Source: Candidatus Heimdallarchaeum aukensis
GTDB lineage: Archaea > Asgardarchaeota > Heimdallarchaeia > Heimdallarchaeales > Heimdallarchaeaceae
Direction: 5' to 3'
Length of the DNA: 64,000 nt
NCBI GenBank assembly: GCA_021513695.1
Contig: CP084166.1
Location: forward strand, 2,016,001-2,080,000
In this document: one piece after another, positions 10,711 through 41,799 of the stretch
How positions within the stretch are numbered: the stretch's first letter is position 1
How the letters are laid out: every line of letters starts with the position of its first letter
The notes under the pieces: model-generated
What the model was told of the DNA's origin: nothing
Database searches by the model: none
Seen by the model: only the letters and a program-made list of their open reading frames with translations
Position numbers and translations under genes: made by a program

Positions 10711-11293
10711 AACTCAATTTCTAGCAAAAAATATCTCTTAAAATTATTTATAAAGTGGTAAAAAATTCTCCTGAGTTTAAATACTACCAATAGCTATATA
10801 TATCAGTAATTGACCAAAAAGAAAAAACTTCACACGATACTAAAAAATGTATTTTTATTTAATTAAAAGGCTGAAGAATAAGAAGTGGGATATATATACA
10901 CTGTTAGATAAAAACAACTTACGGGTTATAAAATTAAAGACGAAATAAAGAAAAAGAGAAAAATTTACAGGTATTTATAAATACCATATTGATTTAAATA
11001 AAAAAAGAGATAGTCACATTTTATGAGTCAATATAGTAAGAAATTGGTCAACCCCAAGTACCCAAACACTACTATGTTGACTCATAAATCCTTGAAAAAA
11101 TCAAAGTCAAGGATAACCCAGAAAGAAAAAATTGACTCATGTTGCTTTTTAGCAAACTTTTTTTCAATGACAGATCTGGGTGAAAAAAGGAAAGTGAAGA
11201 TTTTTTCACTTTCCACACTCTCCTTTAAGTTTATTTTCAAGCATAATAGTGCTTCTTTTTGTTCTCTTTCAAAAAAAATAAAGGTGGATAAGA

Positions 11294-14200
11294 ATGGAGA
11301 AAATAAAGATAAAGAAAAAATTAACAATTTATTCAATTTTAATAATATTAATATTCTCTAATTTAAGTGGATTGAATTTTAAATTTTTGCAAGCAGAAAA
11401 TGGAGATCAAAGTCCTCCATCTATACTCAGAGTAACACAGTTTCCTGAAGTTCCTACCCAATTCGATGGAGTGGTAGTCTATGTAGAAGTGGAAGACGAA
11501 ACAGGGTTCAGTTCTATATATTTGATGTACGAAAGGAATAATAACTTAACATCCATACCAATGAAGTATTTACCCAATTATTATGGGAATGGAACATGTT
11601 TTTACGCTTCTCTTCCTTCTTTTTCTGCAGGAACTAAAATAACTTATTTTATCGAAGTGACTGATTCGAGTGAGAATCAGAATATTGCACACTCACTAAA
11701 ATATGATTATGTGGTGGTGAGTGACGGAATACCAAAAATACAGTTATTAAACGAACCAAAATTTCTGTATTTAGGAGATGAATATAAATTCCAGTTTACA
11801 ATTTATGATGAGGATAATATTTCTCTTCAAGATACAGGGATTGATCCACCTTTATTATATTACAGAACAGAAAGAGTAGAAGGAACACAACAAGTAGTTT
11901 ATAATTCCACAACAGGGGTATTTGAAAGCGTTTTACCTTCTGTGAATCTACTAGATGGAGAAATGAGTGAAGGAGAAAATATAGAGGTGTGGGTAGGAGC
12001 TTATGATAAAAGTCCTGCACACCAGTATGGGGAGAGCAAACATTTGCAGTTACCTGTCATTAACGAGAAACCTTACATTTATGGCGTAGATAGGTATCCA
12101 TATATTCCTTTGTATAATGAAAGTTTCAATTTAACCACAACAATCTATTATAGAGAAAATATAGGTATGAATATCACGCAAGTATCAGCAACTATAAACC
12201 GATATGATGAGGTTACACAAAAAATTACAAAACAAAGTTATATTTTAACCCAAAGTGAATATTCAAAATTTGTATTTACAGGAATAATAGAATCGATTGG
12301 GTATATAGACAATATAGAATTGAAAATAAATTGTAAGTACACTTCAGATTACCAAATAGAAGAAGCAGAAGTAGAAAAACAAGAAAAAAGTTTTAGAGTA
12401 AGAGATTGCGAAGCGCCAACAATATTAGAAAGTGGATTTAGCAACGGGGTATCAACATTAAAAGAAGGAGAAGAAGTAAAAATCTATGCTAATGTACTTG
12501 ATCGTTTGAATACAAAAGATGTCACTGCAATAATTACTGAAGAGTATAAATCAGGATTGCAACTTATTCGTTCATCAAAGGAATATTTCCAGAAAATGGG
12601 TTATTATGGAGATGACGGGATAAGTTTTATTCAACAGATGAGTATTGATCAGAGTATAAGTGGAGATTTTTATTTTGATGGATTAGTTCTAAAAGAAGAA
12701 TATGTTAGTGCAGTGAGAAAAGAAGCAGCAAGTGAAACATTAGTTATTTACGCGGTAGAAGGAAAAAATGAATTATTTATCAAGATTATCAACCCAGAAG
12801 GGTTTGTTCCTTTAAGTTATAATCAGTTGGTTATACAAGCAAAAGCTATAGGACAAGATATTCTTTTAGCAGGAGTATACACTGATTTAGGAGAAACAGT
12901 TGTTTGGAATGAAACAGTAGGAGAGTATGTTTACGATAATGTACTGCCTATAGACAAGGTTTTTACTATAGATGAATACGGAACAGCTTGTTTATACAAT
13001 CTTCAAAATATGGACGATATTACAAATGCGATATGGATAAAATTCGTTCCTGCTGAAGGAGGAAATTTTAGTTCATCTGATGGTTTAAGTATTGATAATA
13101 TTAGATTGTTTAGTATAAATACTTTAAATGGCGAGAGAATAGACTCTTATCATCAAGAAATAAATCATGATTTTGTTGAATACTATGGCTATTATCAAGC
13201 TAAAAAGGTTGATCAATTAATAACTTTCTATATCCAAGCGAGCGACGGAATAAATATCCAAACCCAAAATAATGAGGAAACAATAATAGTAACTGATGGT
13301 AGACCTCCAACATTTGCCATCAAACAAATTTCTGGAGTGGATATAGGTGATATTGAAATCAACTTTAGCATGGCTATCACTGATTATTCTATAATAGATC
13401 CAACTGATGCAGTAAATGTTCGTTTTCATTACAAGATTAACGGATTAGAAGAAATAAGTGCGAACTTAACAGTTGAGAATAACTGGGACGATAAAGGAAA
13501 AGTGTGGGTGTATAGGCTTGACACTACAACAAATTTAAATTTCAACGATATGTGGAAATATTGGTTCAGTGCAGAAGATCCTTGTGGTAATCGTGGAGAA
13601 AGTAAACATTACTCTTTTGTTGTAGAAGAAAATAGTGCACCTACAATATCTTTAACTTGTCAGACCGTTACATATAATGGAGAAGAAAAAACAGTTGTTG
13701 ATCCTGCAGGGGCAGAAATAGGAATATCTGGAGAATATTTAGACATAAACATGGATATAACAGAGAATGAAGGAGGAAGTGGAATAAAACTTATCCAGCT
13801 ATATTGGTATACTTCTTCTCATGAATCAAATTGCTGGAGTTCGGAAGTATATAGTTTTATGTCTAGCTATTCTATCACTAATTTAACTGTAGCAGAAAAA
13901 ATGATACATAATTTCGATAAAGTAGGTATACTTTATTATTATGCACAAGTAATTGATCATGCAGGAAACATTTATCAAACACCAGAATATCAAGTACAGC
14001 TAATAGATAATGTAAATCCTATAATAAAAATCAACTCTGAATATAATAGTCCAAATGGGTTGTATAATGTCGACAATTCGTATGGTGATATAAGCTATAA
14101 TGAAGATGCATATATCACTTTAGAAATAGAAGATGCATCTACTATAACTAACCTAATTTTGGAGGCAGAAACATCTCAAGGTACCTTTGTAGGAGAAGTG

Positions 14201-17200: not shown

Positions 17201-20200
17201 TCTAAAACTATAAGATTTGACGATGAAGCTTGTACTCCAAGTAACATAATAGACAAGATAAACATAAAAGCTCGTTTATCTCTCGATATAGGGGAAAGTA
17301 TAGAAAAAGTTTCAATTTACAAAATATACGCAATAGATATTGAAAATAAAGAACATGTTCTATACTTATCAAATGATGATGAATACTATTTCGATTATAC
17401 AAGTGATCTAAATTATGAAATAGAATTAAATATTTCAGCAGATTCAGCGTATTTCTATATAATAAAAGAGTTTAAAGTAGAATTTAAAATAAAAACCTTT
17501 ACACAAAGTGCTCAAAATGTATTAGAAATATGTTTTGCAGAGTTGAAAGTTATCACTGATGAATTTTTACCATATGATGTCACCTATCCAAAGGATACAT
17601 CACCTCCTTCAATCAATCTAATTCCTGTCTCTCCTCTGAGTCTAGAAAATAGCACTTGGACGTTTTTATACTCTGCAGAAGATTATTCTGGATTGAAAAA
17701 TAATCAGTTCCAATATCGTATAAAATATGATTGGGGAGGAATAGATGATCAAGGTATAGTATATACTAAATCCGATAGTTATTCAGAATACATGGTTTTT
17801 GATCTTGGAGATATTTTTAATATTTATAGCCCTAGCCCTCAAATTGAGGGGGATGTTACCTATTACGCAAAGCGAATATGGATAGAAATTTATGCTGTGG
17901 ATGGTTCAATATGGGAAAATGAATATATCTATGAAAAAACATGGCAGATAGATGATGGTATCAATCCTTGGATAGAACAACAATTTAATTATCTTATTGT
18001 GCAAATGTACAATAATAGTCAGCTGATCTGGACAGAAGCGAAAGATATAGCAGGAGTAAATACAGTTGAACTCATAATAGTAAATATCGAAGATTTTCAT
18101 CATAATATTTATCAAATTAATGATATTTACACATTAAACAAAATTAACAATAGATGGTATTTAGGAGATGGTTTAACTCCATTTAGTTTTTACAAATATG
18201 GAGACGAGGAAATCATACCTTACAAAGTAAATTACTATTACACCATTCATGCAGAAGATGGAAAAGTATGGGATTCAGAAATATTTACTCTTCAATATAA
18301 GGATGGAATAGCTCCCAGCTACTATACTCACTCAATAGAAGCTTATACCGACGCAGAAGATGTGATAATTGAGATATGGACGTATGATGAGATATTTACT
18401 AGCGATGAACTAAATGTTTCAGCAGAATATTGTCAATCTATTTATGAGAATTTTGAATGGACAAATAATGGAACAATATATTATGAGAGTTTCAGTTTGC
18501 AAACTGATGGAGAAATAATTCACAATGGAGAAACGTACTATAGATATAAACTAGTTATTCCTCATGATAGAATTGAAGCAGGGTACGGAATAGTAGGAAA
18601 AATAATTGTTTCAGATCTAGCATCAATACCTAATGTTTTTACTATTCCCATAGAATTACAATTATATGACTCGAGAATAGTATTAGGAACGCCTTATCTT
18701 AATCCTACTCCGGATCAAAATGGCTATGTTCATTTTCTTTCTGATTTATCCCTATCAGTTACTATCATTGAATCGTATTATCCTACTCCTGTCGTATGGG
18801 CAGACGTGTATGTCAATAACGTTTACTCTACTACATTGAATCTGGGAACAGGAGATTATGTTACATACGTTTATGGTTCATTTGACTATAATACCTTAGG
18901 AGCAACATTACAAGATGAAGTAAGATTAGAGTTACATGCTTCAGCAACTATTAACACAGAAACAGTGAATGAAGAAGAAACAAGAATAATAGATTTCGTT
19001 TATTGGGACATTGTTCCTCCCGAGATTACCTATGTTTCTTCTATTCCTGCAAGAATGAACCCTGCAGAATTTACATTTAAGGTAAAAGAAGATATTAGGA
19101 CTATTATTCCTGGGTTAATTACAATCGAATATTCTCCCTATAATCAAAACAATTGGAATCCGTGTAGTGTGGATTATACTGAATCTTTGGGAAATGGAGA
19201 ATGGTTAGTTAATGCTTCGTTCGACAGTTCAAGCATGTCCGCAGGAGAAATATATGATTTTAATATAACAGTAACGGATTATTATAGTGTTACAAACTTA
19301 ATAGTCAGTCGAACTTTGACAGATATTACAGCTCCCACGGTTTTATTCAATTCTCCCTCCTCTCCAGGATACAGTCAAGATATTACAGTGGAAGCAGTTT
19401 TGGTCGATGATTCGGCAGTGGATACAGAAAACGTGTATATTAACTACAAGAACGAAAATGGAGAATGGGTATATACAACAAATTTCAGCAACGAACAAAA
19501 AATGATCTATGATGCTAATACTAACTCTTTCCACTTTACACTAGTATCAGAAAATCATCAAGCTCCTTACGCTATGCTGATAAAAATATGGTGTCAAGAT
19601 GAATATGCTAATTCACATTGGTCAGAATTCACAATATCTCTAGAAGATGACACTCCACCACTTATTATGAATGATGAAGTGTTAGTGAATATAGATAACA
19701 TCAATGAAATTACAGCGGTAGCAGATACTGAAATTGTCATAAGAGCAAGAGATGCTTGGTCAGAAATAAGAGAAACAGAAGTTCAAGTGTATAAAGAAGT
19801 AGGTACTGATAGCTGGGAACTAATAGCTGTTATTCTTCTTTCTCCAGACAGTAGTAGAGATGAAGGAATATTTAAGGGATATAGTGGAATATTAAATAGA
19901 GAAACACTTGAAACAAACAATGTTGTAACAGGAACTCGGTTGAAATTTATTCCTTGGTTTGTCGATGATAAAGGAAATGAAGTCGATACTTTGGAAGTTA
20001 CAAGGACGGTAATTGAAGGAAAGCCTGAAATAAAATCAGTAACTATGAATCCTTCCCCTAGTTCATATCTTCCTTATAATTCTACAGTAAATATAGAAGT
20101 TAACGCCACTTGCGTTTATGGTGTAGAGGACGTTAAATTAGATATATATATTGATGAAGTGTTGAAGATAGCTGATTATTCTTTCACTTTTGATTCTGGA

Positions 20201-23965: not shown

Positions 23966-23967
23966 AA

Positions 23968-29900: not shown

Positions 29901-32900
29901 TGTAAGGTTTGAGAACCCTCGATATGTTAGTGGAGAATATAATTGGGCTAACATAGCAAATGAAATTTATGAATATGATACTGCTTTATATAACATAGAT
30001 TATGCTTTAGATAATAGTTTATACAAAATCCCACAAAGAACAATAGGTTTTGGAGTCAATTATCCTTTTGTGGGGATAAGTGACGTTTCTATTACTCCTC
30101 TTAACTCTATTCAGACAACTGATCTGGATGAGGATGGAGAAGAAGATTTCTCAATTATCAACGGAGACGTAGCAACGGATGGAGAAAATGTTATAGTTAA
30201 ACCTGGTAGTGCAATAACCTCTTTAGATCTGACAAATGATTTGGATATAGCTATTAAATATAAAGACATAATATCTTCTTGTAGGGGTTATTATGATAAC
30301 ACTTTTCTAGACTACTCTTTCGAAGTTGGGTTACAAGATTTGCATAACCCTAATCTTAAATATTATTTTTATATGAAAAATAGCTATCCATATAACCAAT
30401 ATTTTGAGTATGTAAATTCAGGACAGATTGATAATATCGTTCCTTTTACAGAAGACGATTCTTTACCAAGTTTAGATTCAGAAATAACTCAACCACTTAT
30501 GGGAACATATGTGGGGATAAAAGGTTACGCTCAGAGTTCGTCAGACTATTCATTAATAACAGACACACTTTCTTCTACTTTCAAACGTATATTTCAACCC
30601 AAGAATTCGATTTTATATGATTATTTAAATATAAAATATGATGTTACCACTAAAATATTGACTTTTATACTCTGGTCGGAAAAATACGGTAATAAGCAAT
30701 CCTATGAAATAAGCTATAACCTTTCGGAAACAGGAGAATTAGGAACGAATGATTTGACAAATTATACCTTATATTTTAAGACAGAGAACGCTTACTTGTT
30801 TATAGATAAGATTTACACTCGAACCTTTATGCCTGTAGAGGATACTAATTCTGAACGCTATTACAGAGGAGCAGGAAAACTAGGGGATTATTATCTTTAC
30901 TCTCCTGTTAATCATGGGTTAGAATTACAAAATCAAGTTAAACTTAACTATGAAGATTATAATCTTAATTCTTTTCCTTCCACTGAATTTTATTTCATAC
31001 CTACTTCAGAGTCCAGTTTCTCCTTAGATTTATTTGGAATAAAGAGTGATGATACACTCGAGAATTTTCTTAAGTTGGAAATAAATGGAAAAGAGTGTAA
31101 ACTTTCATTAGATTCTGGAGACTCATGGAATTCTCTCAATAATACAGAAATAGAGAATATGTTTGATGTGGTGAATAGTTATACTTGGAACAGTTTATCT
31201 ATTCATCGTGGGAGTGAAGAAGACCAGCTGATTATAACTCTGAATAATCAAGATTATCCTTTCGTTTTTCATATTGATACCGAGGAATATTATAAGTACA
31301 AGTTCACTTTAACTCATAAGCGTTCAAGAACTATAATAGACAATTTATCTTTCCTTTCTCTCTATGAGGAATTTGAAAATGAAAGAAAATTGTTAGACGA
31401 TGAGTGGGAAAAAGATATTTCTCGAGGATTTTACAGACAGATACAGGTGACAAAAGCTCAATCCCAACTAATTATTTATGGTGCATCGATTATAGAAGGA
31501 GAAACAGAAGTTACAGTGACCTTCAATGATGACCCCACTACTACTGTCAGTCAAATTTGGAAACAATCTTCTATAGGATTGAAAATGGACTATTATTCTT
31601 ATCTTATACCTTCTTCTGTCGATATGTCTTTGCCAGTTAAAGTTTCTCTTTCTGTTAGTAATATGGCTATAATCAATTGGTTAAGTATTGAACCGATGAA
31701 AGATATTGAGTCTATACTTTATCTTTCTAACAATAATAAGTATATAGACCAAGTCTATAGTCCAATGGAGTATCTTTCTGGTTCAGAACTTGTCTATTCT
31801 TCCACCTATGAGCAACCTCATGCTCTTGAAGTCGGAGGAACAACACAAGTAAAGTTCAAGTATAATTATTCTCCTGAAGATCTAGATGTCGCTCCTAACG
31901 TGGTTTTTGAAGGATTTATAAAAGGACAAGGTAAAATCTCTTTCTCTTTTCAAGTTAAACTTCCAGACAAATTTACTAGTTTGAATGTGAATTTCATAGG
32001 TTTAGTAGGTGTAGGAGAGAGTACAGAGCAGTATATTGCTACAATCAGCAGAGAAGAAAAAACGATTACTTATTCCGCTATTCTAAGTTCAGCAGAGGAG
32101 CAAGAACAGTGGAAATATTTCTATATTAGCCTTTATCAGCTTGCGAGACATATTCCTAAAGAATTACTTGTAGATAATTATTCAAATGGAAATAAAGAGG
32201 TTGATCTATTAGATGAAAATTACCCTGTTTCTGGTATAATTTCTGATGCAAAAATGGTCGTTAATTATGAAGGTTCATATGTGGAAAAAATCATCCAATT
32301 AGAAAAAGGAGCAAATCAAAATCTATACATTTCTGACTTGAAATCTACAATTACTAACATCCATAGCGCATATCCTTACGAAAATGCTTTATCTTCTTTG
32401 CCTGAGGAAATAAAATGGAAAAAATATGATGTTCCATTTGATGGGTATATTCCTCTTGATAATGTCTATCTTGATGATTTTGACGGTAGTTCGTATTATA
32501 TCTACGATGTAGTGGTTTATGTTGATGCTTCCACTTATTCTAAAGTACATTTAACAGTTGAAACTGAGGGATCTTTTGTTCTTTCTAACCGCTACTCTAT
32601 AATATTACAAAAGATGGGTTTTTCAAACGAAGTTGTTTCTACAGTCTTTAGCGCACAACAAGGATATACTCCCTTGTATCTTCACGTTGTTTTTCCAAAA
32701 ACAGCTTTTAATCAGAATATACGCATTCAATACATCTCCAATGGAGGAGTGGCTATAAGTGCTGAAAACAATAGAGAAGGAGATGCCATATCAGAGTGGT
32801 TGATCTCTACTCCTTTCTATTCGGAAAAAAATGAGGACACCGTTGATTATCTTAATTTTATTTCACAAGTTACACCTATGGAAGGAGAGCGATTCGAAAA

Positions 32901-35900
32901 AAGAGTAGTAGATTCAGAAGGATTTACCCACACAGAAACAATAGAATTTTCTGAATTCACTTTTCCTGGATTTTGTCCTATCTTAGACTTTGTTCCTCAT
33001 GCTGTTCCTTCAGGTTATTCTGTTATTCTCACTACTACGCTCGATTTCGCCAAAAGTTTGAACACTTCCTTAGTTCTACTTCTAAACAAAGAAAGTGGCA
33101 TAACAATACAATCCTTACTTTGGGATGAGACTCCACTTCTTTACATCAATGAAGGAGTATTTAACGAAATTGACTCCGATTTGGAAAATGGTATGATTAC
33201 TATACCTTTGAATAGTGAAGGGTTAACTGTCAACAGTCTCTTTTCTCCTAAAGAAAACAACCCTAATGAGTATGGTTTCATAGAAAACGACCCTGATTAT
33301 AACTTTCATTTTTCATCTTCTGACCCTTATAGTATAAAAACATCCTCTGTTAACCCTGATTCTGTTATTTTGAACAACAAAGGCATTCACAGAATAGTTA
33401 TCCAATTAACCTTTCCTTCTCCTTATAATACAGATTTTGGAATATATTTGGAAAATGTAGATGATAGCGTGCGAACTGTTTTATCTCCCTCAGATAAAGC
33501 AATAGACTTTCATGCAATCGCACAGAAGAACTTTATTCAATTTGAAAACGATCTTCATCAACCTCAAACTCTTGCTCAATTAGAGAAAAACGAGAATACT
33601 TTATTTAAATCACGATATTTCAAAGATGACTATGGTCAATACCATTCCTATAGAATTTATAGTCTTGGCTTTTCTGATGAATACACCTTAGATAAAGGAA
33701 AGAAATGGAAAATATATGATGGTGATACTGATGATTCTAACGATGTTATCTATGAAAGTACAGCTCACTACAATTGGAAACATGTAATAGGAAAGATGAA
33801 TTTTGCAATTGTTATAGATGAAGGAACTCCACAAGTTTTGCAATTGCCTTTTAATTTTCTAGTAGGTTACATGGTCTTTTGTGATTGGCTAGATACAAAT
33901 GGAGATGGATTAGAAGATACATGTGCTCCTTATATAGGTCTAGCAGACCCCTTAGATGCTAGTTCTACTTACGATGATGTAAAAAAAGGTGTAGTGTATA
34001 ATACAGAGGAAGAGAAGAAAATAAGTTATGATGTTACTGATGAACAACAAGCAGAACTCAAGAATCTTACTGTACGCCAATCGTTGATATCTTCTCTTTC
34101 AACTACAGTAATTACAAAAACAGAAGAAACCATCCCCTTATCCTACACTTCTGACGAAATAGCTGCTATTCAAAACAATGGATTAACTCTTGATCGTTAT
34201 CTTCATTCTTTAATAGAAAATGACTATTTGACCTACTCTGAAGATATTGCAAGAGTAGAAATAACTATTAGTTCTTCAAATAATAAAGAAATTGACCTTG
34301 CTTATGATTATGATAAAGAAATATTGTTCACCCACAGTGTTGATAATGCTACAGGAGAAGAAGAAAAAATAGTCTATGATTTTAGATATGACTGTTTTTC
34401 TGTCCTCACTCCTGATGCTCTTGCTAACGACAACTACAGAGTAGATTTTTATACTTTTAATAATAAACTAAGTCTCTATGATACCGATTTGTATAAACTT
34501 AAAGAAACGCCTAATTCTTACGGATTGTTAGATGATCCACAAACTCTTTCACCTATGGTAGTCTTAGAAAATTATAACTATGAAATAAAAGAAACAGTTA
34601 ATAGTCTTGATTCAAAAGATGAAGAAATTTTAAACAATAGTCCAACAACAATTGTAGACGCTTTTGTTCAAGGATTAAGTCTTTCTCAACTAAGCGTGGA
34701 AATGTATGATGCTGAAATAGAGATGGATTATTACAGTTTAGATCTCTTCTATTCTGTTTTCTTTAATGAATATTTGACTCTACAACAATTCTTCTATTCT
34801 CAAGAAACATTAAATAACAACCAGAATTATCAGTATTATCCTACTGGGACAATCCAATTTGCTAAATGGATTAGTTCAATACTTAACTCCTATATAATCC
34901 AACAATCAGACAAATTATTTGATGAATACCAAAACCGTACTTCTCGATATGATTCAGAGAAAAAAGCTATAGCTGCTATGTCCTTTTTGTTAGACCTTAT
35001 TATTCCTTATCGCGGATTCAAAACCTACGGTTCGGAACCTAAACCAGAAGAGACTCATCACCCACGTTTCTCTAGTTATGTGGACTTCAAATATAGTCTA
35101 GTTATGTTTTGGGGATTAATCTTAGGTAATAGTGCAGGCTGTGGAATACCTAAAAATTCTGTCTCTCTGTTTAGCGAGAGTGAGAGAACTGGAAAACTCT
35201 TGATGATTGACGAATTATGGGATAAAGCTATTAAACACTGGAACTTGGCAGATAAAAGTAGAATAGATGATCCTAGCGAATATTTGCCCTATACTGACCG
35301 AGCTGTAGTAGACAAAATACTGTTTGACGCCAGAGTAAGAGGAGATGAAGCTATGATCGACTGGATAACAAATGAAGATTATAGTGCTGAGGCTTATTAC
35401 ATGCAACCCTATGGAGTGGATTATTCGATCTATTACTGGTTGAAGGCTTTTACTATTCAACAAGGATATGACCCTTATGCTATCAAGGTTTACACCATTG
35501 AAGAGATGAATAGTCAAGAGAGAGAAGATTTTGACGAAAATTATTTTGTTATAGGCGTTCCTGTTTCCACAATCGAAGACCAATATTTAGAATATAACTG
35601 GTTTGTAAGTCTAGATAAAGAAACACGTGTGCCCACTTCTGCTACATCACAACTAATAGACTTTATCCCTCTTGTATTCGGTCAAAGTTCTAATCCACAT
35701 ATAAGAACAATGATGAAAATAATTAAAAGATTAGGAAATGCAGCAAAAGGAGAAAATTTCGGTTATAATACTTTTAGCATGAGTGAATTCAGCTTAATCG
35801 TTACTTTAGAATTTTTAGTTAATCTTGTAGATATAGGCGCTTTACTTATTGATATCAGAGATGCCTATATAGGAGCTACTCCTTTCATACGCAAAATGTC

Positions 35901-38900
35901 GCTCATGCAAATACCAATGGATATACTAGATTTGTTCACTCCAGGACCTTTTTCTCTCGTAGGAAATACAATGAATAAAATTTTCAAATCTATAGTCGGA
36001 GACGTTACCTTAGAAGTAAATAGGATAACAAAAACATTTAATTTACTAGATATTGTACAAAATTTCCCAAAAGGAGAGTGGAAAAGCATTGCTCGAGCAG
36101 CAGGAAAATCAGAACTAATGATCTGGATAGTTGGAGCAGCACAAGTGACTTACCGTTTCTCTAAACTAGCCAATCAATTCTATCAATGGTTCTTCTTCCT
36201 CCCGCAAAAGATTTTCATGAGTAGTTTACAAATAACTTTAGGGTCATTCATGATATTTGCCTCTAAAATGATTTATGCCATCAGAAGAATGGATATCGAA
36301 GAAGCAATGTTGTTAAACATTAAAGCGCAAAAATACTTCAACCAAGGACTAGATGATACCGCTAAAATGACAAGAGCTATATTAAGCCATCCAAAAATGC
36401 TAGCAAGATTTGGAACTGAAGAACTTATAGAACGAGCAAATATAGTAGCAAAATATTACATGAACATTATTATAAAGAAAGTAATGGAATTGGAAGCAAC
36501 ATCAAAAGCAATACTAGAATCGGTTGAAAAGTCACGCTTCTATGTTATGATGGCCTTAAGATATGCTACACATATGTACATGAACACCCCAGGAGGAGTA
36601 GGTATACACTTCTCTCCCAATTTAATTGATAATGAGAAAGAAACTGAAGGAATAAGACATTTCAACACCGTGGATAATATTTTGCCAAAATTAGAATATG
36701 AAATAGCAATGTATTACTGGAAGCATGAATATCTAGCGGATGATGAAAAAATAAAAGAGTATAATAGTGAAAAATTCAATTTCAGAGATGTAGAAAGCGC
36801 AAAAATACATATAACTATAGCTTTTTCATCTATTGCTGCAATACATTCGACACCAGAATCATTCCAAAGATATAAAGAACTACTAGAATACACAGATAAG
36901 AGGTTAATAGAAATAAAAAATGAAAAGGGTGAAAATCTAGAGTATACACCTATATGGTGGATTTTACATTTGCCTGTTGATCCCTCGCTACAAAAACTAG
37001 CCCTTAGCCACATATTTGATGAATCACCTGCAGTTTCACTGCTTCTAAAAGTTCTAATGGTAGAGAAAGGTCTTAACGAAGACTTATTAGAAAATAATAT
37101 CGACGATATAGATGAATACAATAAAGAAGTTCATTCCATTTTAGATCAAATTTTATCTTCTTCCCCCCTAAATATAAGTCATAAAGTCTTTATCCTTGAA
37201 AAAGATGAAAAAGGGAATCATATCTGGAAAGCAAGAATTTTAGATTTGTTAGGGCAATCTGAAGGATCATTAACTAAGTTAAGGACACGAGATGAATATA
37301 TTAAGTGGTCTGTAATCGGTAGAACAGGAATAGACTTGTTAGGCCTTTTCGGAAGTGAAGAATTAAAAAACTATTTTCCCAAAGGAGTAAGAAATGCTTT
37401 AACTGCTAGAAATGATCAAACTTCAATAATCTATGAGCTTATATGTATGGGATTATTAGATTTTAGATTTTATACAGATGATAAAAATGTAAAGGATCAA
37501 TTAAAAATTGATTTTCCAGAGCATGACTTTGAAAAAGAACCCAGTATTAGCATTGCTGAATTAGCTAAAAAATATAGTAAATATGATATTCTAGAATTAT
37601 TTGAAAAAAGTAATTTTATTAGACAGACTCTTATAAGTAATGGAGTAGACGGATTAATACACAGTACAAAAATAGGAAAGTCTCTTTATTCTGTTAAAGA
37701 TTCAACGGGAATATTCAATAAAGCTAATTCAAAAAATATTTTATACTCTGTAGCAGCTGAAAATGCATATATAGGTCATGGAAGTGTTATTTATTATTAT
37801 GATAAGCTACAAGGTGATATTATCACGGATATAGATAATAAATTGATATACAATGCTAGATATTATGATCCTACAGCTTCAAAATCACCTAAACCTTTTG
37901 TTCCAGGCGATGCAATATTACTCTATGATTCCAATGTAAATCGTTATCTGTTTTTAAGAACTAATTTTCCTGAGGACACTATGCTAAATCAAAATCAGAA
38001 ACTAGATGAATATAGTGGTTTTAAAAGAGAAATTAACGTGTTTTGGTTTCAAATAAACAAAGATACAAATGAGGGAGAGATAGTTTATGATACATTAGAA
38101 CACTATTGTTATGAAAATGAAAAACTGAAGGAAGGAATAAAAGTTGTTGGAACGGAGGATATTTTGCAAGAGGTAGATAAGTTTCATCCAAAGAGAAATA
38201 AAATAAGAAGTAGTCAACCTATAATATCAATAGAAGCAAAGCAAAATGGAGGGAACATAGATTACGTTGTCTCAATGGATGAACAACTTCCTTTATTTAG
38301 GTTTATAGGTGGAGATTATTCAACTGCAACAGAAAAAGACATCAATTTTGCTAGTTTTCTTTACCCAAGAAAACATTCCAACGATATTGTTTTCGGATTG
38401 CAAGATGATAACTTAGATTTTATCGATGAAAAGGGTTTATGGCCTATCCATATGGGTTTAAGCCCAGGAAGGTTTACATACAACGTGCAAAACATATATT
38501 TAGATGAGATTAATTCAGCAAAAGCGTTATTGGATAAATTAGATGAATTAGATAACTTGCCTGTAGTAGAAGTTAAAACAAAGGATAATGAATATATAAC
38601 TCGACCAGCAACAGTTCAGGAAGTAAATCAACAGAGAGTATATGAGTTAATTAGATGGTACTCTACAAGTCAAGTGTATACTTATTATGTGTCTAGTTTA
38701 AATAAAGAAAATAAAGCATTTTTGTGCAGAGCATATCTAGATGATTGGAATGCAGCTAAATCGTTAGGTGAAATCATAGAAATAGCAGAAGATACTAATG
38801 GAAATCTATACCAGAAATATGGTTATGAGAATAAACAAGAATATCTAACCTTTAGAATGAATGTTATTCAAACAATAATAAACGAACAAGAACAGTTCTA

Positions 38901-40641
38901 TAAATACAAGTTTAAAGATGAAAGTGATTTAACAAAAGAAGAAAAGTTGGTAATATTTCTAAAAGAACAAAAAGAATTTTTTGAAAGATTACATAATGAC
39001 GCTGCTAAAATAGAGGCATTTCAAGAACCATTTTTTTCAAACTTGAGACTAGACATTAAAGAAGTCGATACATATAATGTACTTAATTATCGCAGTTTAG
39101 AATCGTCAATTGAATTACTTTTATTAAATAGATTTGACTCGTATAATAAGATACACTTATTCGAAGGAGATGTACCTTTTTCAAGAAACCCGATGAAATT
39201 CGGTTTCGATAATGTAATTGTCCAAATAGGTACGAGAGCATTCATAAACAAGGTCAAAGAAGAGGGAATATTAGATTTTGATGAAGATAAAAATTCAGTA
39301 TTAGAACTAGCTAATAAAGTATTTAAAAGAAAAACAGTTATAAAACCATTAATCCGCGGACCAATAAAAGCAAAATCAATTGCTTTTCTCCAACATGAAG
39401 AAACAATGGCTAAACTGAACAATTATAAAACATTGCAAAAAATATCCAAAGAAGAAATAAGGCTCTGGAAACTTTACAACAAAAAATTAGATAATGAAAA
39501 AGGCCATTTGACTGTAGAGCAACTATACGAAATAGAAGAAGAGTTCAACAATATAAATGGAAAAAATATAGTAGGAAAACAAGGAGCAGGGATGACAGTA
39601 ATAGAAGATGGAAACACATATGTTGTAAAAATATACAGTCTCATCAGTGATTTAAGATATAATAACAAAATTCATGCAGGTAGTGAGGCAAATAAGTATG
39701 ATATTGCAGAAAGAGTGTTGGGACTAGCACAACACATAAAGTACGTAGCAAAGGAAGGAAGAATATACATTAATTATGCAATGGCAAACATTCTTTATCT
39801 GATAAAAACACTAACAAACGGTAAAATGGAAATAGATGACGTCCAGAATCTAAGGGACCTGGGAAATCCAAAGGAATTAGAAGCTATACTAGTAAATAAT
39901 TTAGGGGAAGAAAGAACAAAAGAAATACTAAATATTTTAGAAGAAGTAACCATAAGAACGAAAAGAAAAATAAAACAAGGAAAAGATTATTCCATAGAAA
40001 ATATAGAAAAAGGACAATCGTTGGCTTTTCAAATTGGATATGTGGATCTGAAAAATATAACCCCTGAGGTAAGAGGAAAATTAAGGCTACAAGGGATGTT
40101 ATTGAGAGAAATCTTGATGTTACTGGATATAATATATGGACTATATTATACAGGAAGAAATTATATGAAACGCCTAGATATTAATTTAGCGCAAACAACA
40201 GTAATTTTCGAAAAAACAACGGAAGAAGGCAAAACAATACTAAAATTAAAAGACGTAAAAACAAGCACAGAACAAGAAATGAATGGAGAGTTCATATCAT
40301 CACTGAACGATTTCGACCAAAAAACAGCATCAATAATAGAAAAACTGGCTGAAACTAAATATTCATCAGTATTTGGACCAGAATTTATGACTAGAGAACA
40401 ATTAAGAAAATTGGTAGATGAAATAATAGAAGAATATGAGAGTATACTAAAATTGAAAATAAGAAAATTCAATGAAATATTAACTCAAGACGATATGGAA
40501 GTAGAACTAGTAGCAAAGAAATTCAAAATAGAAGAATTGCTAAAAATGCTAACACCTAAAGGATTATGGTCAATGTACGAGCAAAAGAAAAGAAATAATG
40601 AAAAAAGAGGACAAACAAAAATAACAGACTTCCTAATTTAA
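23968..40641 (+). CDS. giant membrane protein (5557 aa): N-terminal signal-anchor, about 3600-aa ectodomain, cluster of hydrophobic helices, and an about 1400-aa Lys/Glu-rich cytoplasmic tail
   Basis: The start codon is 3 nt after the stop of the preceding giant gene, with GGAGG 8 nt upstream. N-terminal TM segment (LVITGVALFISVIVILQSF). Hydrophobic segments near aa 3660-4100 (KYSLVMFWGLILGNSAG, LMIWIVGAAQV, QITLGSFMIFASKMIYAI). The C-terminal third has a charged, helical-looking composition. Confidence 0.85.
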   Translation: MQKIKSKMNTFLGKLNKRSLVITGVALFISVIVILQSFSIALYPQSSDDDSYTFFYSDFSDKEEWKGVYRLSWGSIIVDSNFNAMSKKIDLYWYGMQQLFLEVKGIDSLKLDSSSAIQVIDADTSRILYELRGSQLSSFNVSVDLSAYVYEDTSALYINIIGSIKIIDYIRIFTPKLYYHNFLNDGKTFPNAYHEFNQLYIDYLAYTEEVTYETPVIKVPEGNNVNLTFAFNLVPSLTSNYSMFAHIYADIYGLGGFGEVEQRIELGYSYTNMSFGADYVSLIDKEITLLGNYYVRFYLNFDCFETNEEDIQIKLIAFFIQPHNNVEEQSEYVDPALYIRKSPNAYISEQVVEGRVFNALTVDRQGYIATYKISHMDTIFYDKLDPSTIEENYTIGNPDTLVYDFDSSKNLRLNSSGYLYSSESIGSDFSVSTSFNLNSLASNRIFAGIGIYGTHSYEFAVGNMTLYEETYVDEETTTVKVKEVYQAYLHVYKDNLLIRSYALNQTFGEGQVISLSLSSKFGYKAYSVQINYEEIVISLSEIIAIGGKPGIFAKIPQPSPDNFVSFYYLSASGITEYSPRRLLIYSKTQQYVTVVLKATRINPLSFSSEKVVIDEKKLSQNKEGILYFSYIPKPFEYIHLEVYCTNPDEELTSSFSILAMKFSGIHEYNTIIPSYDYYDISDSVYFEKRNLISEDLSDNFIASYDAIVEERYSLLEIGAEAQDSLPDTQIDIYTRKLNSGLPFTFQGTVYWTEHESGSFFSHVLYLDLSPGNYEIRLERPLIFTSKLNISYLLLRPLTSYANAVTDSVGFTNPLSWEKDFTTDKIDAFNGIDQFIEESYYSLVHPSCYMKDDGNGNYEQYTDWTPSTDDTQIWSVEDNLASFVGGVKLDIPDVSTGPEGYPYLRFVARTYSNCTIDLKLTLTYSDGSTNEYYYSVSQEPKVYFFNFDYTDSLKILSGIEFFTNYILYNDKDESVIVSDIHLYRFTNIEVKLEDQSYLDDSGFDTSDYSGDNFSVAPFLSDYYGLLDIDLNYIPSNERVKVWTDNDAEGLKQYYYNYNNHYLLPSTVTVPINDWRVNKGASVGIYSTPLTSLNLNFMISMDIENRKTFNEDMTIELFEYKFKPNTDAYATSLPYSYYKLKFYLYGSIEMQNEEGEMEGGYLYYRLFAYDGVEETELTPTYDMLSDNTDFLQAISTNTLDFPNMLRITENYEKGITHLIYNTNEESELRAVFPVNFEEAYTISIHFGQDQEIKREYADADSKDEVFDTPFFVGVSSFDTFLDLYGGSGEKATLLFADVTIPSSMFPSLFIQTSEAINSTTELTWGTDYSINWSPEPTFYVNSYEPSRNEETGYKPLAHHINLFENRYLLLEDLKTIFEEIDVTPYLVNENYGDFIYLPKYYSATLSTLQDVYVTTYDLSFEGTGNFQLIGNTILKSYIFDYNDEKNKNWKNEFIDKTVSSLKFISTYEKDTLPKTYLSCLDYLSYEYYAKNKKREYSFTDGFTNYEDWTTVDFSLFERVKEPSLRSSPLGLVIDENSIDFTSENMDSIYDYFDPTDELEDLFSFSGKTIYYLPSYYMKGGNDQPGHSLWDRVIAGEAFQGFNPSSSPYYQNQLYLYNNWMYDLQSQIIQKEGYNIYDQNELQIYNIYDEIPGDHRDFSCMLPDYLRFKPVYYSTSLPKNFIWSFDINVDSWSLGNLAENYVKFFDKEEGRYSFYISIPIILPSHGNKPYYQDLAQAPNVLRLFIYYDSGTEYHDSDTETGFFKLDPHYSIYLGRSIIGIWKASESVSLHFEIAVEEKEIDESYAIYQEGVNGGPQITAYYDYNLQMWINNDNMYWDLLKLPMWMLTIAYPYKDKDDNKAIPNNYQYDLMYNQLFNTQNSENGYINPQYSEAFNTYYKGLYGDKEPNGFQPDARLFFDTGSLTEHTYHWLQYQRSLVSDKYYSLSLSEYGIDPSNPSLYDWDYHYYSRDNYAGMVRSDLADVRFENPRYVSGEYNWANIANEIYEYDTALYNIDYALDNSLYKIPQRTIGFGVNYPFVGISDVSITPLNSIQTTDLDEDGEEDFSIINGDVATDGENVIVKPGSAITSLDLTNDLDIAIKYKDIISSCRGYYDNTFLDYSFEVGLQDLHNPNLKYYFYMKNSYPYNQYFEYVNSGQIDNIVPFTEDDSLPSLDSEITQPLMGTYVGIKGYAQSSSDYSLITDTLSSTFKRIFQPKNSILYDYLNIKYDVTTKILTFILWSEKYGNKQSYEISYNLSETGELGTNDLTNYTLYFKTENAYLFIDKIYTRTFMPVEDTNSERYYRGAGKLGDYYLYSPVNHGLELQNQVKLNYEDYNLNSFPSTEFYFIPTSESSFSLDLFGIKSDDTLENFLKLEINGKECKLSLDSGDSWNSLNNTEIENMFDVVNSYTWNSLSIHRGSEEDQLIITLNNQDYPFVFHIDTEEYYKYKFTLTHKRSRTIIDNLSFLSLYEEFENERKLLDDEWEKDISRGFYRQIQVTKAQSQLIIYGASIIEGETEVTVTFNDDPTTTVSQIWKQSSIGLKMDYYSYLIPSSVDMSLPVKVSLSVSNMAIINWLSIEPMKDIESILYLSNNNKYIDQVYSPMEYLSGSELVYSSTYEQPHALEVGGTTQVKFKYNYSPEDLDVAPNVVFEGFIKGQGKISFSFQVKLPDKFTSLNVNFIGLVGVGESTEQYIATISREEKTITYSAILSSAEEQEQWKYFYISLYQLARHIPKELLVDNYSNGNKEVDLLDENYPVSGIISDAKMVVNYEGSYVEKIIQLEKGANQNLYISDLKSTITNIHSAYPYENALSSLPEEIKWKKYDVPFDGYIPLDNVYLDDFDGSSYYIYDVVVYVDASTYSKVHLTVETEGSFVLSNRYSIILQKMGFSNEVVSTVFSAQQGYTPLYLHVVFPKTAFNQNIRIQYISNGGVAISAENNREGDAISEWLISTPFYSEKNEDTVDYLNFISQVTPMEGERFEKRVVDSEGFTHTETIEFSEFTFPGFCPILDFVPHAVPSGYSVILTTTLDFAKSLNTSLVLLLNKESGITIQSLLWDETPLLYINEGVFNEIDSDLENGMITIPLNSEGLTVNSLFSPKENNPNEYGFIENDPDYNFHFSSSDPYSIKTSSVNPDSVILNNKGIHRIVIQLTFPSPYNTDFGIYLENVDDSVRTVLSPSDKAIDFHAIAQKNFIQFENDLHQPQTLAQLEKNENTLFKSRYFKDDYGQYHSYRIYSLGFSDEYTLDKGKKWKIYDGDTDDSNDVIYESTAHYNWKHVIGKMNFAIVIDEGTPQVLQLPFNFLVGYMVFCDWLDTNGDGLEDTCAPYIGLADPLDASSTYDDVKKGVVYNTEEEKKISYDVTDEQQAELKNLTVRQSLISSLSTTVITKTEETIPLSYTSDEIAAIQNNGLTLDRYLHSLIENDYLTYSEDIARVEITISSSNNKEIDLAYDYDKEILFTHSVDNATGEEEKIVYDFRYDCFSVLTPDALANDNYRVDFYTFNNKLSLYDTDLYKLKETPNSYGLLDDPQTLSPMVVLENYNYEIKETVNSLDSKDEEILNNSPTTIVDAFVQGLSLSQLSVEMYDAEIEMDYYSLDLFYSVFFNEYLTLQQFFYSQETLNNNQNYQYYPTGTIQFAKWISSILNSYIIQQSDKLFDEYQNRTSRYDSEKKAIAAMSFLLDLIIPYRGFKTYGSEPKPEETHHPRFSSYVDFKYSLVMFWGLILGNSAGCGIPKNSVSLFSESERTGKLLMIDELWDKAIKHWNLADKSRIDDPSEYLPYTDRAVVDKILFDARVRGDEAMIDWITNEDYSAEAYYMQPYGVDYSIYYWLKAFTIQQGYDPYAIKVYTIEEMNSQEREDFDENYFVIGVPVSTIEDQYLEYNWFVSLDKETRVPTSATSQLIDFIPLVFGQSSNPHIRTMMKIIKRLGNAAKGENFGYNTFSMSEFSLIVTLEFLVNLVDIGALLIDIRDAYIGATPFIRKMSLMQIPMDILDLFTPGPFSLVGNTMNKIFKSIVGDVTLEVNRITKTFNLLDIVQNFPKGEWKSIARAAGKSELMIWIVGAAQVTYRFSKLANQFYQWFFFLPQKIFMSSLQITLGSFMIFASKMIYAIRRMDIEEAMLLNIKAQKYFNQGLDDTAKMTRAILSHPKMLARFGTEELIERANIVAKYYMNIIIKKVMELEATSKAILESVEKSRFYVMMALRYATHMYMNTPGGVGIHFSPNLIDNEKETEGIRHFNTVDNILPKLEYEIAMYYWKHEYLADDEKIKEYNSEKFNFRDVESAKIHITIAFSSIAAIHSTPESFQRYKELLEYTDKRLIEIKNEKGENLEYTPIWWILHLPVDPSLQKLALSHIFDESPAVSLLLKVLMVEKGLNEDLLENNIDDIDEYNKEVHSILDQILSSSPLNISHKVFILEKDEKGNHIWKARILDLLGQSEGSLTKLRTRDEYIKWSVIGRTGIDLLGLFGSEELKNYFPKGVRNALTARNDQTSIIYELICMGLLDFRFYTDDKNVKDQLKIDFPEHDFEKEPSISIAELAKKYSKYDILELFEKSNFIRQTLISNGVDGLIHSTKIGKSLYSVKDSTGIFNKANSKNILYSVAAENAYIGHGSVIYYYDKLQGDIITDIDNKLIYNARYYDPTASKSPKPFVPGDAILLYDSNVNRYLFLRTNFPEDTMLNQNQKLDEYSGFKREINVFWFQINKDTNEGEIVYDTLEHYCYENEKLKEGIKVVGTEDILQEVDKFHPKRNKIRSSQPIISIEAKQNGGNIDYVVSMDEQLPLFRFIGGDYSTATEKDINFASFLYPRKHSNDIVFGLQDDNLDFIDEKGLWPIHMGLSPGRFTYNVQNIYLDEINSAKALLDKLDELDNLPVVEVKTKDNEYITRPATVQEVNQQRVYELIRWYSTSQVYTYYVSSLNKENKAFLCRAYLDDWNAAKSLGEIIEIAEDTNGNLYQKYGYENKQEYLTFRMNVIQTIINEQEQFYKYKFKDESDLTKEEKLVIFLKEQKEFFERLHNDAAKIEAFQEPFFSNLRLDIKEVDTYNVLNYRSLESSIELLLLNRFDSYNKIHLFEGDVPFSRNPMKFGFDNVIVQIGTRAFINKVKEEGILDFDEDKNSVLELANKVFKRKTVIKPLIRGPIKAKSIAFLQHEETMAKLNNYKTLQKISKEEIRLWKLYNKKLDNEKGHLTVEQLYEIEEEFNNINGKNIVGKQGAGMTVIEDGNTYVVKIYSLISDLRYNNKIHAGSEANKYDIAERVLGLAQHIKYVAKEGRIYINYAMANILYLIKTLTNGKMEIDDVQNLRDLGNPKELEAILVNNLGEERTKEILNILEEVTIRTKRKIKQGKDYSIENIEKGQSLAFQIGYVDLKNITPEVRGKLRLQGMLLREILMLLDIIYGLYYTGRNYMKRLDINLAQTTVIFEKTTEEGKTILKLKDVKTSTEQEMNGEFISSLNDFDQKTASIIEKLAETKYSSVFGPEFMTREQLRKLVDEIIEEYESILKLKIRKFNEILTQDDMEVELVAKKFKIEELLKMLTPKGLWSMYEQKKRNNEKRGQTKITDFLI

Positions 40642-40664
40642 AAATAGTAAATAAAGAAAAAAAC

Positions 40665-40768
40665 TGGTGCGTCAACCGGGAATTGAACCCGGGCCGTCGA
40701 ATCTCTTCTTGAGGCTTCTAGACGCCATATAATGGAAGTCCGACGTACTACCACTATACTATTGACGC
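40665..40768 (-). tRNA. tRNA-Gly (anticodon TCC) with an intron of about 30 nt
   Basis: Minus-strand read: GCGTCAA TA GTAT AGTGGTA GTAC G TCGGA CTTCCAT [intron] TTCGA CGGC CCGGG TTCAATT CCCGG TTGACGC A CCA. Confidence 0.7.
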
Positions 40769-40984
40769 TTTCTTTGTTTTTTTCTTTCTATTCTTTTGAT
40801 TACCGATTTCTTTTTAACTTTTATGGATTTTGTCTTTTTCTTTTTTTTCTTCTTTCTCTTCTTTTTTTTATTTTTAATTTATGTTTCTCTTCTTTTTTTT
40901 ATTTGTTTAAAATCAATATATTTAAGTAACGTTGTTTTGTTTCTGACTTAAGATATACTAACATTATTTAGAGGAGAATATATT

Positions 40985-41482: not shown

Positions 41483-41558
41483 ATTTCGTTATAAACAAAG
41501 TTTATGAATGCTAGTAAAAAATTAAACATGAAGTATATTTAAAATAGAGGTATAGATA

Positions 41559-41753: not shown

Positions 41754-41799
41754 TATTATTCTTTCTTACGTTTTACTTAAACCTCGTGGAGATGAAATT

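Follow-up and report, generated by a model that had tools for sequence, protein, structure and literature searches.

The 64,000-nt stretch of the Candidatus Heimdallarchaeum aukensis genome analyzed here (contig CP084166.1, positions 2,016,001 to 2,080,000 of the forward strand; hereafter the window) carries two giant genes in tandem, A and B, which are almost certainly the published Otus and Ephialtes genes of an H. aukensis aloposon, Aloposon3 (Wu et al. 2022; Nat Microbiol 7:200, PMC8813620). The neighborhood is archaeal, with Spt5 (NGN-KOW), ribosomal proteins L11, L1, L10 and L12, and intron-containing tRNAs. The products of A (UJG39998.1, K9W45_09095) and B (UJG39999.1, K9W45_09100), of 4223 and 5557 amino acids (aa), are both labeled 'hypothetical protein' in the database. 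Together the two genes make up 29 kb of an accessory block of 36.7 kb, and in window coordinates the pair is organized as follows.

11294–23965, plus strand: giant gene 1 (A, 'Otus'), ATG start, 4223 aa, predicted type I membrane protein
23955–23959, plus strand: GGAGG, ribosome-binding site for B, inside the end of A
23968–40641, plus strand: giant gene 2 (B, 'Ephialtes'), ATG start, 5557 aa

Integrity and identity of the gene pair

The two adjacent giant reading frames reported by a first-pass annotation of this DNA are both present, and they fill 45.9% of the window, close to the 'almost half' estimated there. At the junction (GGAGGAAATAAAAATG), the GGAGG that had been noticed upstream of the second start is located at 23955–23959, the TAA stop codon of A at 23963–23965, and the ATG of B at 23968. 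Two bases separate the stop from the start codon, and the gap of 3 nt given before is the difference between the coordinates. At the composition of the window, the probability of a stop is 0.081 per codon, or about one per 12 codons; the log10 probability of remaining open by chance is −155 for A and −204 for B, and 50 shuffles gave no open run longer than 167 codons. Chance is therefore excluded as the origin of these long open reading frames (ORFs). In the sister species Ca. H. endolithica PR6, both orthologs are intact, at 4225 and 5541 aa, and their stop and start codons are spaced as in the window. The ratio of nonsynonymous to synonymous divergence (dN/dS; Nei–Gojobori) against PR6 was 0.15 for A and 0.33 for B, and at most 0.37 in every 300-codon window. 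These results establish that both giant genes are intact and tightly coupled, and that purifying selection acts on them.

The opposite view, that the frames are pseudogene concatenations or assembly artefacts not translated as single proteins, would predict frameshifts or stop codons, as the first-pass annotation had pointed out, and the Logan assembly of SRR15988958 (L005) does split B into four ORFs. This assembly differs from the window by three 1-nt homopolymer deletions (CCC, A7 and C6, at window positions 28111, 32825 and 37163) and by zero substitutions, so the split is an assembly artefact. B is open in two other assemblies, the finished genome and a contig of another run, and in the PR6 ortholog. 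With dN/dS well below 1 over the whole length and chances of staying open of 1e-155 and 1e-204, the pseudogene explanation is effectively refuted. The fragments of B from L005 stand in protein databases as separate entries (P0010–P0012). Fragmentation of giant genes by homopolymer deletions in automated assemblies is worth bearing in mind.

The genomes of Ca. H. aukensis and Ca. H. endolithica PR6 were assembled by Wu et al. (PMC8813620), who characterized aloposons by tandem genes for proteins of 3,000–6,000 aa, named Otus and Ephialtes, by a tRNA site (the integration site) downstream of the giant genes, and by four consecutive upstream genes including one for a MinD/ParA-like ATPase. At the present locus, the genes for 4223 and 5557 aa are adjacent on the same strand, and tRNA-Gly(UCC) lies 27 nt past the stop codon of B, with another tRNA in the equivalent position in PR6. 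Plus-strand genes for a DUF4365 protein, a 90-aa ORF, a 397-aa ORF and ParA are located at 4765–8964, and the same set is found in PR6; equating these with the four genes of the paper is our own reading. The products of K9W45_09080, K9W45_09095 and K9W45_09100 are identical to the window proteins, and the PR6 locus is collinear at ~91–93% with different flanks. Aloposon2 of H. endolithica and Aloposon3 of H. aukensis were described as one conserved element at different tRNA sites, and several paralogous aloposon copies were reported per genome (PMC8813620). In organism, locus and defining anatomy we found no difference between the present pair and the published one. A scan of species-representative genomes gave exactly one related locus, that of PR6.

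Since the locus was named and published in 2022, the present finding is a rediscovery and not a discovery. The suggestion of an undescribed system is thus superseded: Wu et al. (PMC8813620) had already named the locus as the hallmark of aloposons. The supposed reduced genome of the host is likewise contradicted, as Ca. Heimdallarchaeum aukensis PM71 has a genome of 3.08 Mb (3,081,793 bp; PMC8813620). In later literature aloposons are cited in passing only, and no function has been proposed there for the giants. New with respect to Wu et al. are the domain and topology model, the element borders, the relic site, the absence of a recombinase and of terminal repeats, and the swappable tail.

Architecture of Otus and Ephialtes

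For A, the following features were assigned, with hydrophobicity given as Kyte–Doolittle (KD) values and modules scored by a hidden Markov model (HMM).

11294–11395, plus strand: Sec-type signal peptide (aa 1–34), with K-rich n-region, hydrophobic core at aa 10–32 and the end ...LQA before E, from hydropathy and sequence reading
11405–11695, plus strand: immunoglobulin (Ig)-like module, first block (aa 38–134), HMM score 73
13295–14704, plus strand: four tandem Ig-like modules (aa 668–1137), HMM scores 51–73
19007–21640, plus strand: eight tandem Ig-like modules (aa 2572–3449), HMM scores 38–90
23828–23884, plus strand: C-terminal transmembrane (TM) anchor (aa 4179–4197), KD 1.64, followed by a K/R-rich tail of 26 aa

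The first-pass view of A as a secreted protein with a C-terminal anchor agrees with the signal-like segment at aa 10–32 and the TM segment before the basic tail, which is cytoplasm-like in composition (+0.38). The body of A is Y/N/S-rich and strongly acidic (net charge −40 to −57 per 500 aa). Two boundary motifs, D..xP.I (27 observed against 5.9 expected) and (A/V).D..GN (14 against 3.1), are enriched in A and not in B. By iterative HMM search, 13 solid modules of ~105 aa were detected in three blocks, with scores of 37–90 against a shuffle maximum of 3.0. One more candidate is marginal, and about five begin at a boundary motif and score within noise. The earlier count of about 18 Ig-like modules is thus lowered to at least 13, while the assignment to the Ig fold was borne out. 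The modules are mutually ~20% identical, and no internal repeats of A were detected by BLASTP. Between and after the blocks, non-Ig inserts extend over approximately aa 249–667, 1138–2571 and 3450–4175.

With the 13 paralogous modules as multiple sequence alignment (MSA), AlphaFold2 modeled aa 3350–3449 as an all-beta domain of eight strands, at a predicted local distance difference test score (pLDDT) of 96.1 and a predicted template-modeling score (pTM) of 0.86. By Foldseek against PDB, the model matched Ig V/I-set domains, the Ig-like domain of Porphyromonas gingivalis PPAD, and titin, with template-modeling scores of 0.6–0.7 and a probability of ~1.0. The doubt raised beforehand, that structure prediction might yield no folded repeats, does not apply to this module. 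In a PDB profile search, the module gave full-length but weak matches to the streptococcal R28 repeats (E=0.004), and weak matches to the RII region of MpAFP were also observed (E=0.01). Over all 4223 aa, zero matches at E≤1 were obtained in Pfam and NCBIfam, including Big_x, HYR, Cadherin, PKD, fn3 and Rib. These results support an Ig-like beta-sandwich fold for the modules, which would form a sequence family of their own outside Pfam. The designed Kelch 'SAKe' proteins that headed the PDB profile matches were rejected as an artefact, being summed weak matches to a short yD..tneW motif.

At the C-terminus of A (...ALILSFSLFIGSLTFIRKRTF...), no PGF motif of the archaeosortase/PGF-CTERM type was found, and no S-layer family matched in Pfam or NCBIfam. 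A word-indexed homology search with the C-terminal half returned nothing, not even the query itself; such queries saturate this search, and the negative is weak. Taken together, the analysis strongly indicates that A is exported, anchored by a C-terminal TM segment, and displays at least 13 Ig-like modules in three blocks split by long non-Ig inserts. In its length and its tandem modules of ~100 aa, A resembles the giant Ig-like adhesins of bacteria (Marinomonas MpIBP/MpAFP RII, SiiE, Bap/LapA and streptococcal Alp/R28 Rib), and both probably work as extended stalks that present binding regions. A differs from them in giving no Pfam Big, Rib or Cadherin match, in the low mutual identity of its modules (bacterial repeats are near-identical), and in its anchor, a C-terminal TM helix in place of type I secretion system (T1SS)/RTX, sortase or outer-membrane retention. 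Its host is an archaeon, and its gene is paired with that of a second giant.

For B, the following features were assigned.

24025–24081, plus strand: N-terminal signal-anchor TM (aa 20–38), KD 2.49, with five K/R before and none after
24082–35787, plus strand: predicted ectodomain (aa 39–3940), acidic and Y/N/S-rich, no detectable repeats or domains
35788–35850, plus strand: main second TM (aa 3941–3961), KD 2.21, with a switch from ecto-like to cyto-like composition directly after
36112–36279, plus strand: weakly hydrophobic pair (aa 4049–4104), KD 1.2–1.4, possibly a membrane-associated hairpin, uncertain
36500–40449, plus strand: hypervariable tail-coding part (~aa 4180–5494), 64–83% nucleotide identity to PR6 against 90–100% in the rest of the locus

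The N-terminal signal-anchor described in the first pass was recovered at aa 20–38, and the distribution of K and R around it places the N-terminus of B inside. Composition was scored by log-odds trained on the cytoplasmic proteins of the window versus the A ectodomain and the NosD-like protein of the block, with B kept out of the training set. All 20 tiles of 200 aa up to aa 4000 were ecto-like, and later tiles were cyto-like or neutral. On these data the most economical topology for B would be an N-in TM segment, a predicted non-repetitive acidic ectodomain of ~3,900 aa, a TM segment at aa 3941–3961, and a cytoplasm-like tail of ~1,600 aa. The huge ectodomain and long tail of the first-pass plan are retained, at sizes larger than its ~3600 and ~1400 aa. 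The 'hydrophobic-helix cluster' placed between them was confirmed only in part, as the segment at aa 3941–3961 is strong and those at aa 3709–3727, 4049–4067 and 4082–4104 are marginal.

No repeats in B and no similarity to A were found by BLASTP, tiled phmmer or the A-module HMM; hhalign on two-row ortholog profiles missed even the known Ig repeats (maximum probability 7%) and is uninformative on repeats in B. The B ectodomain matched no family and no PDB sequence. Neither A nor B gave a sequence match in Pfam, NCBIfam, PHROG, PADLOC or PDB, in accordance with the earlier remark that no enzymatic domain could be recognized in either protein. From these predicted features, both giants are very probably membrane-anchored cell-surface proteins.

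The tail of B stands apart in its evolution. The average nucleotide identity (ANI) between the PM71 and PR6 genomes is 88% (PMC8813620), and most of the locus is 90–96% identical to PR6; a 3.5-kb stretch at the start of B is ~100% identical (dS ~0 over aa 1–1200). In the last 4 kb of B, nucleotide identity is 64–83%, amino acid identity 47–75%, dS 0.9–1.3 (aa 4200–5557) and dN/dS 0.18–0.37. As synonymous divergence of the tail is also raised, more than relaxed constraint is involved. A partial protein from another metagenome-assembled genome (P0001) is 100% identical to B over aa 2540–3955 and ~62% identical thereafter. The three tail alleles, of the window, PR6 and P0001, are mutually 45–80% identical. 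The relic P0003/L006 from a close relative carries a fourth variant, at 61% amino acid (72% nucleotide) identity on a background of 97–98%, and shares the last 64 residues of B at 83%. The breakpoints, at ~aa 3960–4000 for P0001 and ~aa 4100–4200 for PR6, are located at the membrane boundary. Old tail lineages thus appear to have been recombined at least twice onto a recently homogenized or transferred ectodomain, and the tail would behave as an exchangeable cassette, with at least four diverged alleles on near-identical ectodomains. The exchange of alleles at membrane breakpoints suggests a tail partner that differs between element lineages. No earlier account of tail exchange was found in the literature consulted.

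An exhaustive phmmer search with tail aa 4110–5300 against 1.84 billion representative proteins gave three matches, all within the same genus. No relatives of the tail were found in Pfam, NCBIfam, PHROGs, PADLOC or PDB (by single sequence and by three-allele profile), in two metagenome scans, or in the IMG/VR scan.

The accessory block, its borders and its mobility

The block and the features around it are as follows.

3501–3605, minus strand: intron-containing tRNA-Gly(GCC), directly left of the block, Rfam 45.9 bits; the L006 copy is Gly-GCC by ARAGORN
3686–3753: 68-bp segment, candidate left terminus, common to the window, PR6 Aloposon2, a second PR6 copy and the relic site in L006
3754–40449: accessory block (Aloposon3 of Wu et al. 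2022), 36.7 kb, with 2.6 kb in its place in close relatives
3764–4684, minus strand: Cas4-like PD-(D/E)XK nuclease, 306 aa, Pfam PDDEXK_1 2.1e-11, PHROG exonuclease, conserved at the left of the PR6 element
4765–6219, plus strand: DUF4365 protein, 484 aa, Pfam 5.4e-12, PADLOC Aga_REase 5e-8, restriction-endonuclease-like N-terminal domain, conserved in PR6
6241–6540, minus strand: HxlR-type winged-helix regulator, 99 aa, Pfam HxlR 1.5e-7, conserved in PR6
6708–6980, plus strand: 90-aa ORF, no family match, 97-aa counterpart in PR6
6987–8180, plus strand: protein K9W45_09080 of ~393–397 aa, overlapping the ParA start, 390-aa counterpart in PR6
8164–8964, plus strand: MinD/ParA-family ATPase, 266 aa, Pfam AAA_31/CbiA/ParA, PHROG ParA-like 7.6e-16, NCBIfam MinD/ParA
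9132–10514, minus strand: NosD-like parallel beta-helix surface protein, 460 aa, Pfam NosD 1.4e-19, Beta_helix and TSP3_bac, conserved in PR6
40450–40800: right transition zone with the last 64 codons of B and the tRNA, 75–98% identical to the relic-site relative; host-level identity from ~40800
40668–40768, minus strand: intron-containing tRNA-Gly(UCC), 3' end 27 nt from the B stop, Rfam 59.3 bits; the L006 homolog is Gly-UCC

The 306-aa nuclease matched Cas4 in PADLOC/TIGR at ~1e-10, under the curated cut-off. For K9W45_09080, no match was found in Pfam, NCBIfam or PADLOC, and its sole database match is itself in H. aukensis (100%). The NosD-like protein combines an N-terminal signal with TSP3 calcium-binding repeats, and its C-terminal TM segment is followed by a basic tail.

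The PR6 locus is collinear with the window at 90.8–92.9% identity, at another chromosomal position and with different flanks. On its left side (L003, 92.9% identity), the gene set and order from the Cas4-like nuclease to the giants are the same as in the window. To the right of the ortholog of B (B') come a different tRNA and housekeeping genes, for an XPD-like helicase, RNase P p30, a glycosyltransferase of family 2 (GT2) and an RPA-like protein. Homology to PR6 starts at ~3686 and homology to the relic-site relative ends at 3753, leaving the 68-bp segment common to both. A second PR6 copy of a tRNA, the 68-bp left end and the Cas4-like nuclease was observed at L002 34045–35000, 7.5 kb right of B' and at another tRNA; a further element of the aloposon type probably begins there. 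At L003 1619–2631, the Cas4-like nuclease gene of PR6 is interrupted by an insertion sequence (IS) of the rve family (helix-turn-helix plus rve), with the target-site duplication CAACAAAGGATATAGTC.

Three JGI metagenome contigs of a close relative (L006, which is JGI 3300033148, L007 and L008) have the host synteny of the window, L1-L10-L12-tRNA-Cys-297 aa-tRNA-Gly(GCC) on one side and tRNA-Gly(UCC)-L11-SecE-Spt5 on the other. By blastn, the flanks are 97.8% identical up to window position 3753 and 97.2% identical from 40450. In place of the block is a 2.6-kb relic site, with the gene for a TM-anchored surface protein of 631 aa and a decayed Ephialtes-tail remnant of 214 aa. As the 68-bp left end, the decayed tail and a different gene are kept there, the site is a relic or a replacement and not a clean empty site. 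The block is thus accessory, being present in H. aukensis, elsewhere in the sister species, and decayed in close relatives. The 631-aa protein (L006 8041–9936; also in L007 and L008) starts with a signal peptide, contains beta-helix-like repeats and ends in a TM segment with a basic tail; it has no Pfam match and is not significantly similar to A, B or the NosD-like protein. An Otus-type module suggested by eye at its end was rejected, as the HMM score was within noise.

By the fine identity profile, the left break is sharp at 3753/3754, and an intermediate zone extends on the right to ~40800. Compared with its L006 homolog, tRNA-Gly(UCC) has an intron and paired, compensatory stem substitutions, which suggest that the tRNA travels with the variable segment. 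Both flanking tRNA-Gly genes have introns of ~30 nt in H. aukensis, and their L006 homologs (7676–7751 and 10664–10738) are intron-less. These differences amount to tRNA-intron gain or loss, or to whole-gene replacement, between very close lineages. The ribosomal and transcription genes L1-L10-L12 (68–1967) and L11-SecE-Spt5 (40985–42294) stand to the left and right of the block. In archaea these genes usually form one conserved cluster, so the aloposon site lies between the halves of what is usually a single cluster.

No recombinase (rve, DDE, tyrosine or serine recombinase, or Cas1) was matched in the proteins at 3764–10514 or in the giants with Pfam, NCBIfam, PHROG and PADLOC. In PR6, the rve gene is carried by a separate IS, bounded by a target-site duplication of its own, and is not an element-encoded recombinase. 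Terminal inverted repeats, att repeats and duplicated tRNA fragments were also absent, with no repeat longer than 9 nt between the block ends in the window; the PR6 ends share a single 14-nt match, not at the borders. The same search detected a repeat of the 3' 56 nt of tRNA-Leu(UAG) (52000–52084) at 54884–54939, at 88% identity, around a 2.8-kb T/C-rich insertion, and is therefore able to detect att-type repeats. In the absence of both recombinase and terminal repeats, 'transposon' is a name, and the mechanism it implies is not supported. The two PD-(D/E)XK-type proteins and the pair of ParA and the 397-aa protein are candidates for the DNA transactions of the block. Like the archaeal tRNA-targeting integrative elements with tyrosine recombinases (SSV- and pTN3-type), the block is accessory, abuts a tRNA 3' end, encodes a partition ATPase, and varies in presence between relatives, with the tRNA gene within the diverged junction zone. 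Unlike them, it showed no integrase gene, either complete or split, nor any att repeat or duplicated fragment of a tRNA. A reading of the block as a defense system was rejected: in PADLOC, Cas4-like and REase-like matches fell on the accessory genes alone, and none on the giants.

Apart from the block, several observations were made in the window. The tRNA-Leu repeat (52000–54939) is att-like, as is typical of a small integrated element; the only long ORF in the 2.8-kb insertion (51978–54881, 967 aa, F/S-rich in its N-terminal third) gave no Pfam or NCBIfam match. At 47646–48335, beside an ADP-forming acetyl-CoA synthetase, is a membrane-lipid gene of bacterial type, which encodes a PlsY-type glycerol-3-phosphate acyltransferase (Pfam G3P_acyltransf 1.2e-48). 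At 42327–45207, an Eco57I/MmeI-like type IIG restriction-modification methylase gene (785 aa) is followed by a minus-strand Roadblock/LC7-family gene, according to the syntenic L006 calls. Roadblock/LC7 is one of the 'eukaryotic signature' proteins of Asgard archaea.

Proposed role of the pair and competing explanations

Export signals and TM anchors are predicted for three proteins of the block, A, B and the NosD-like protein, and nothing enzymatic was recognized in them. Among Asgard archaea, only a Lokiarchaeon has been imaged at high resolution; it has no S-layer and displays 'complex surface proteins' on a single membrane (PMC9834061). A surface role appears to be the most reasonable reading of the pair, and the adhesion or signaling suggested in the first pass is a putative function. 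We propose that A and B, probably with the beta-helix protein, constitute a cell-surface apparatus encoded by the element. In it, Otus would serve as an extended Ig-like stalk or adhesin; Ephialtes would span the membrane as its partner and link the outside to a cytoplasmic tail, which may bind a lineage-specific cytoplasmic partner. The apparatus would serve attachment or cell–cell contact favoring the element, through host colonization or transfer between cells. We give this reading as a whole a probability of about 0.6; its component of contact or adhesion, taken by itself, is tentative and possible rather than probable.

Several points weigh against this proposal. The signal peptides and TM topology are predictions from composition, hydropathy and the positive-inside rule. 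B has one strong TM segment (3941–3961) and two or three marginal ones between its ectodomain and its tail; composition favors a cytoplasmic tail, but a membrane crossing by exactly one weak segment within aa 4049–4104 would put the tail on the outside. The putative ectodomains of A and B show no enrichment of N-glycosylation sequons, a test that is uninformative on topology. The tail is without homologs outside the genus, and its AlphaFold2 model from a two-row MSA reached a pLDDT of 32 and was discarded. Otus and Ephialtes were assigned to A and B by gene order and size, and not from a table of Wu et al. In the Pfam, NCBIfam, PHROG and PADLOC scans the block showed no genes for conjugation, secretion or DNA transfer, and it also lacks a recognizable integrase or transposase and terminal repeats.

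The missing integrase, transposase, terminal inverted repeats and att duplications would also suit genes of the host's own surface coat, or for binding of matrix in mineral or sediment life, residing in a recombination-prone island that is not self-mobile. Consistent with such an island, the block equals its surroundings in G+C content, a third TM-anchored surface protein is co-located, mosaic divergence points to homologous recombination throughout, and at the relic site stands another gene, also for a TM-anchored surface protein but smaller, as in a surface-antigen island. This explanation is nevertheless rather unlikely, as the same 37-kb block, with its partition- and nuclease-type genes, is found at different positions and tRNAs in two species, several paralogous copies per genome have been reported (PMC8813620), a second left end occurs in PR6, and the 68-bp left end is common to all copies. 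Because the pair is cargo of a ~37-kb block with ParA, a Cas4-like nuclease and edge tRNAs, a context missed in the first pass, a purely host-encoded envelope apparatus becomes less likely. Such cargo might instead point to a virus or vesicle, the block being a defective or satellite provirus or a vesicle-spread plasmid and the giants envelope-embedded host-recognition or fusion proteins of its particle and not of the cell. The putative virus HeimV2 carries the same tandem giants and was called a virus–aloposon hybrid (Wu et al., PMC8813620); ParA ATPases and Cas4-like nucleases are common in archaeal viruses and plasmids, the block is polymorphic in presence and absence, and both giants are membrane-anchored, like envelope proteins. 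The block, however, encodes no capsid, portal, terminase or other virion hallmark, its PHROG matches being exonuclease and ParA only, the IMG/VR scans held no tail relatives, and an internal tail of 1,600 aa with an ectodomain of 3,900 aa far exceeds known archaeal envelope proteins. We consider this origin improbable.

In several alleles of B, an N-terminal part of 3,950 aa is near-identical and then gives way sharply to strongly diverged C-terminal sequence; on a giant filament-like surface protein, this recalls the polymorphic toxins CdiA, Rhs and WapA, in which a conserved giant N-terminal part also meets a variable C-terminal part at a sharp breakpoint. A contact-dependent competition system, with a giant scaffold and a variable C-terminal effector, is nonetheless very improbable here. 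The variable region is long (~1,500 aa), homologous among alleles (45–80% identity) and under purifying selection (dN/dS 0.18–0.37), where unrelated toxin tips would be expected, and its predicted location is the cytoplasm. The giants matched no family of toxins, nucleases or immunity proteins, no VENN- or PxxxxDPxGL-type motif is evident in the breakpoint sequence, and no downstream immunity gene is present, as B is followed by no ORF and the tRNA starts 27 nt past its stop codon.

Within the preferred reading of an element-encoded surface apparatus, a bolder version would make Otus, Ephialtes and the beta-helix protein a novel cell–cell contact machine, in which the invariant ectodomains make the contact and the tail is a lineage-specific coupling cassette. 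We regard this version as a long shot. If it were true, the tail might recruit the DNA or partition machinery of the element (ParA and the 397-aa protein) or discriminate between competing aloposons, and an element without recognizable recombinase or conjugation genes would spread between cells.

The locus is among the oddest features of Heimdall-group Asgard genomes. Each aloposon copy devotes ~1% of the genome to nearly 10,000 aa of giant protein matching no known domain family, in the archaea that are closest to eukaryotes, where cell–cell contact is central to models of eukaryogenesis. The giants now have a testable model, a TM-anchored Ig-like stalk with a bitopic partner carrying an orphan tail, together with element borders, block-less strains and a swapped tail. 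This model gives concrete targets for proteomics, cryo-electron tomography and population genomics on existing enrichment cultures.

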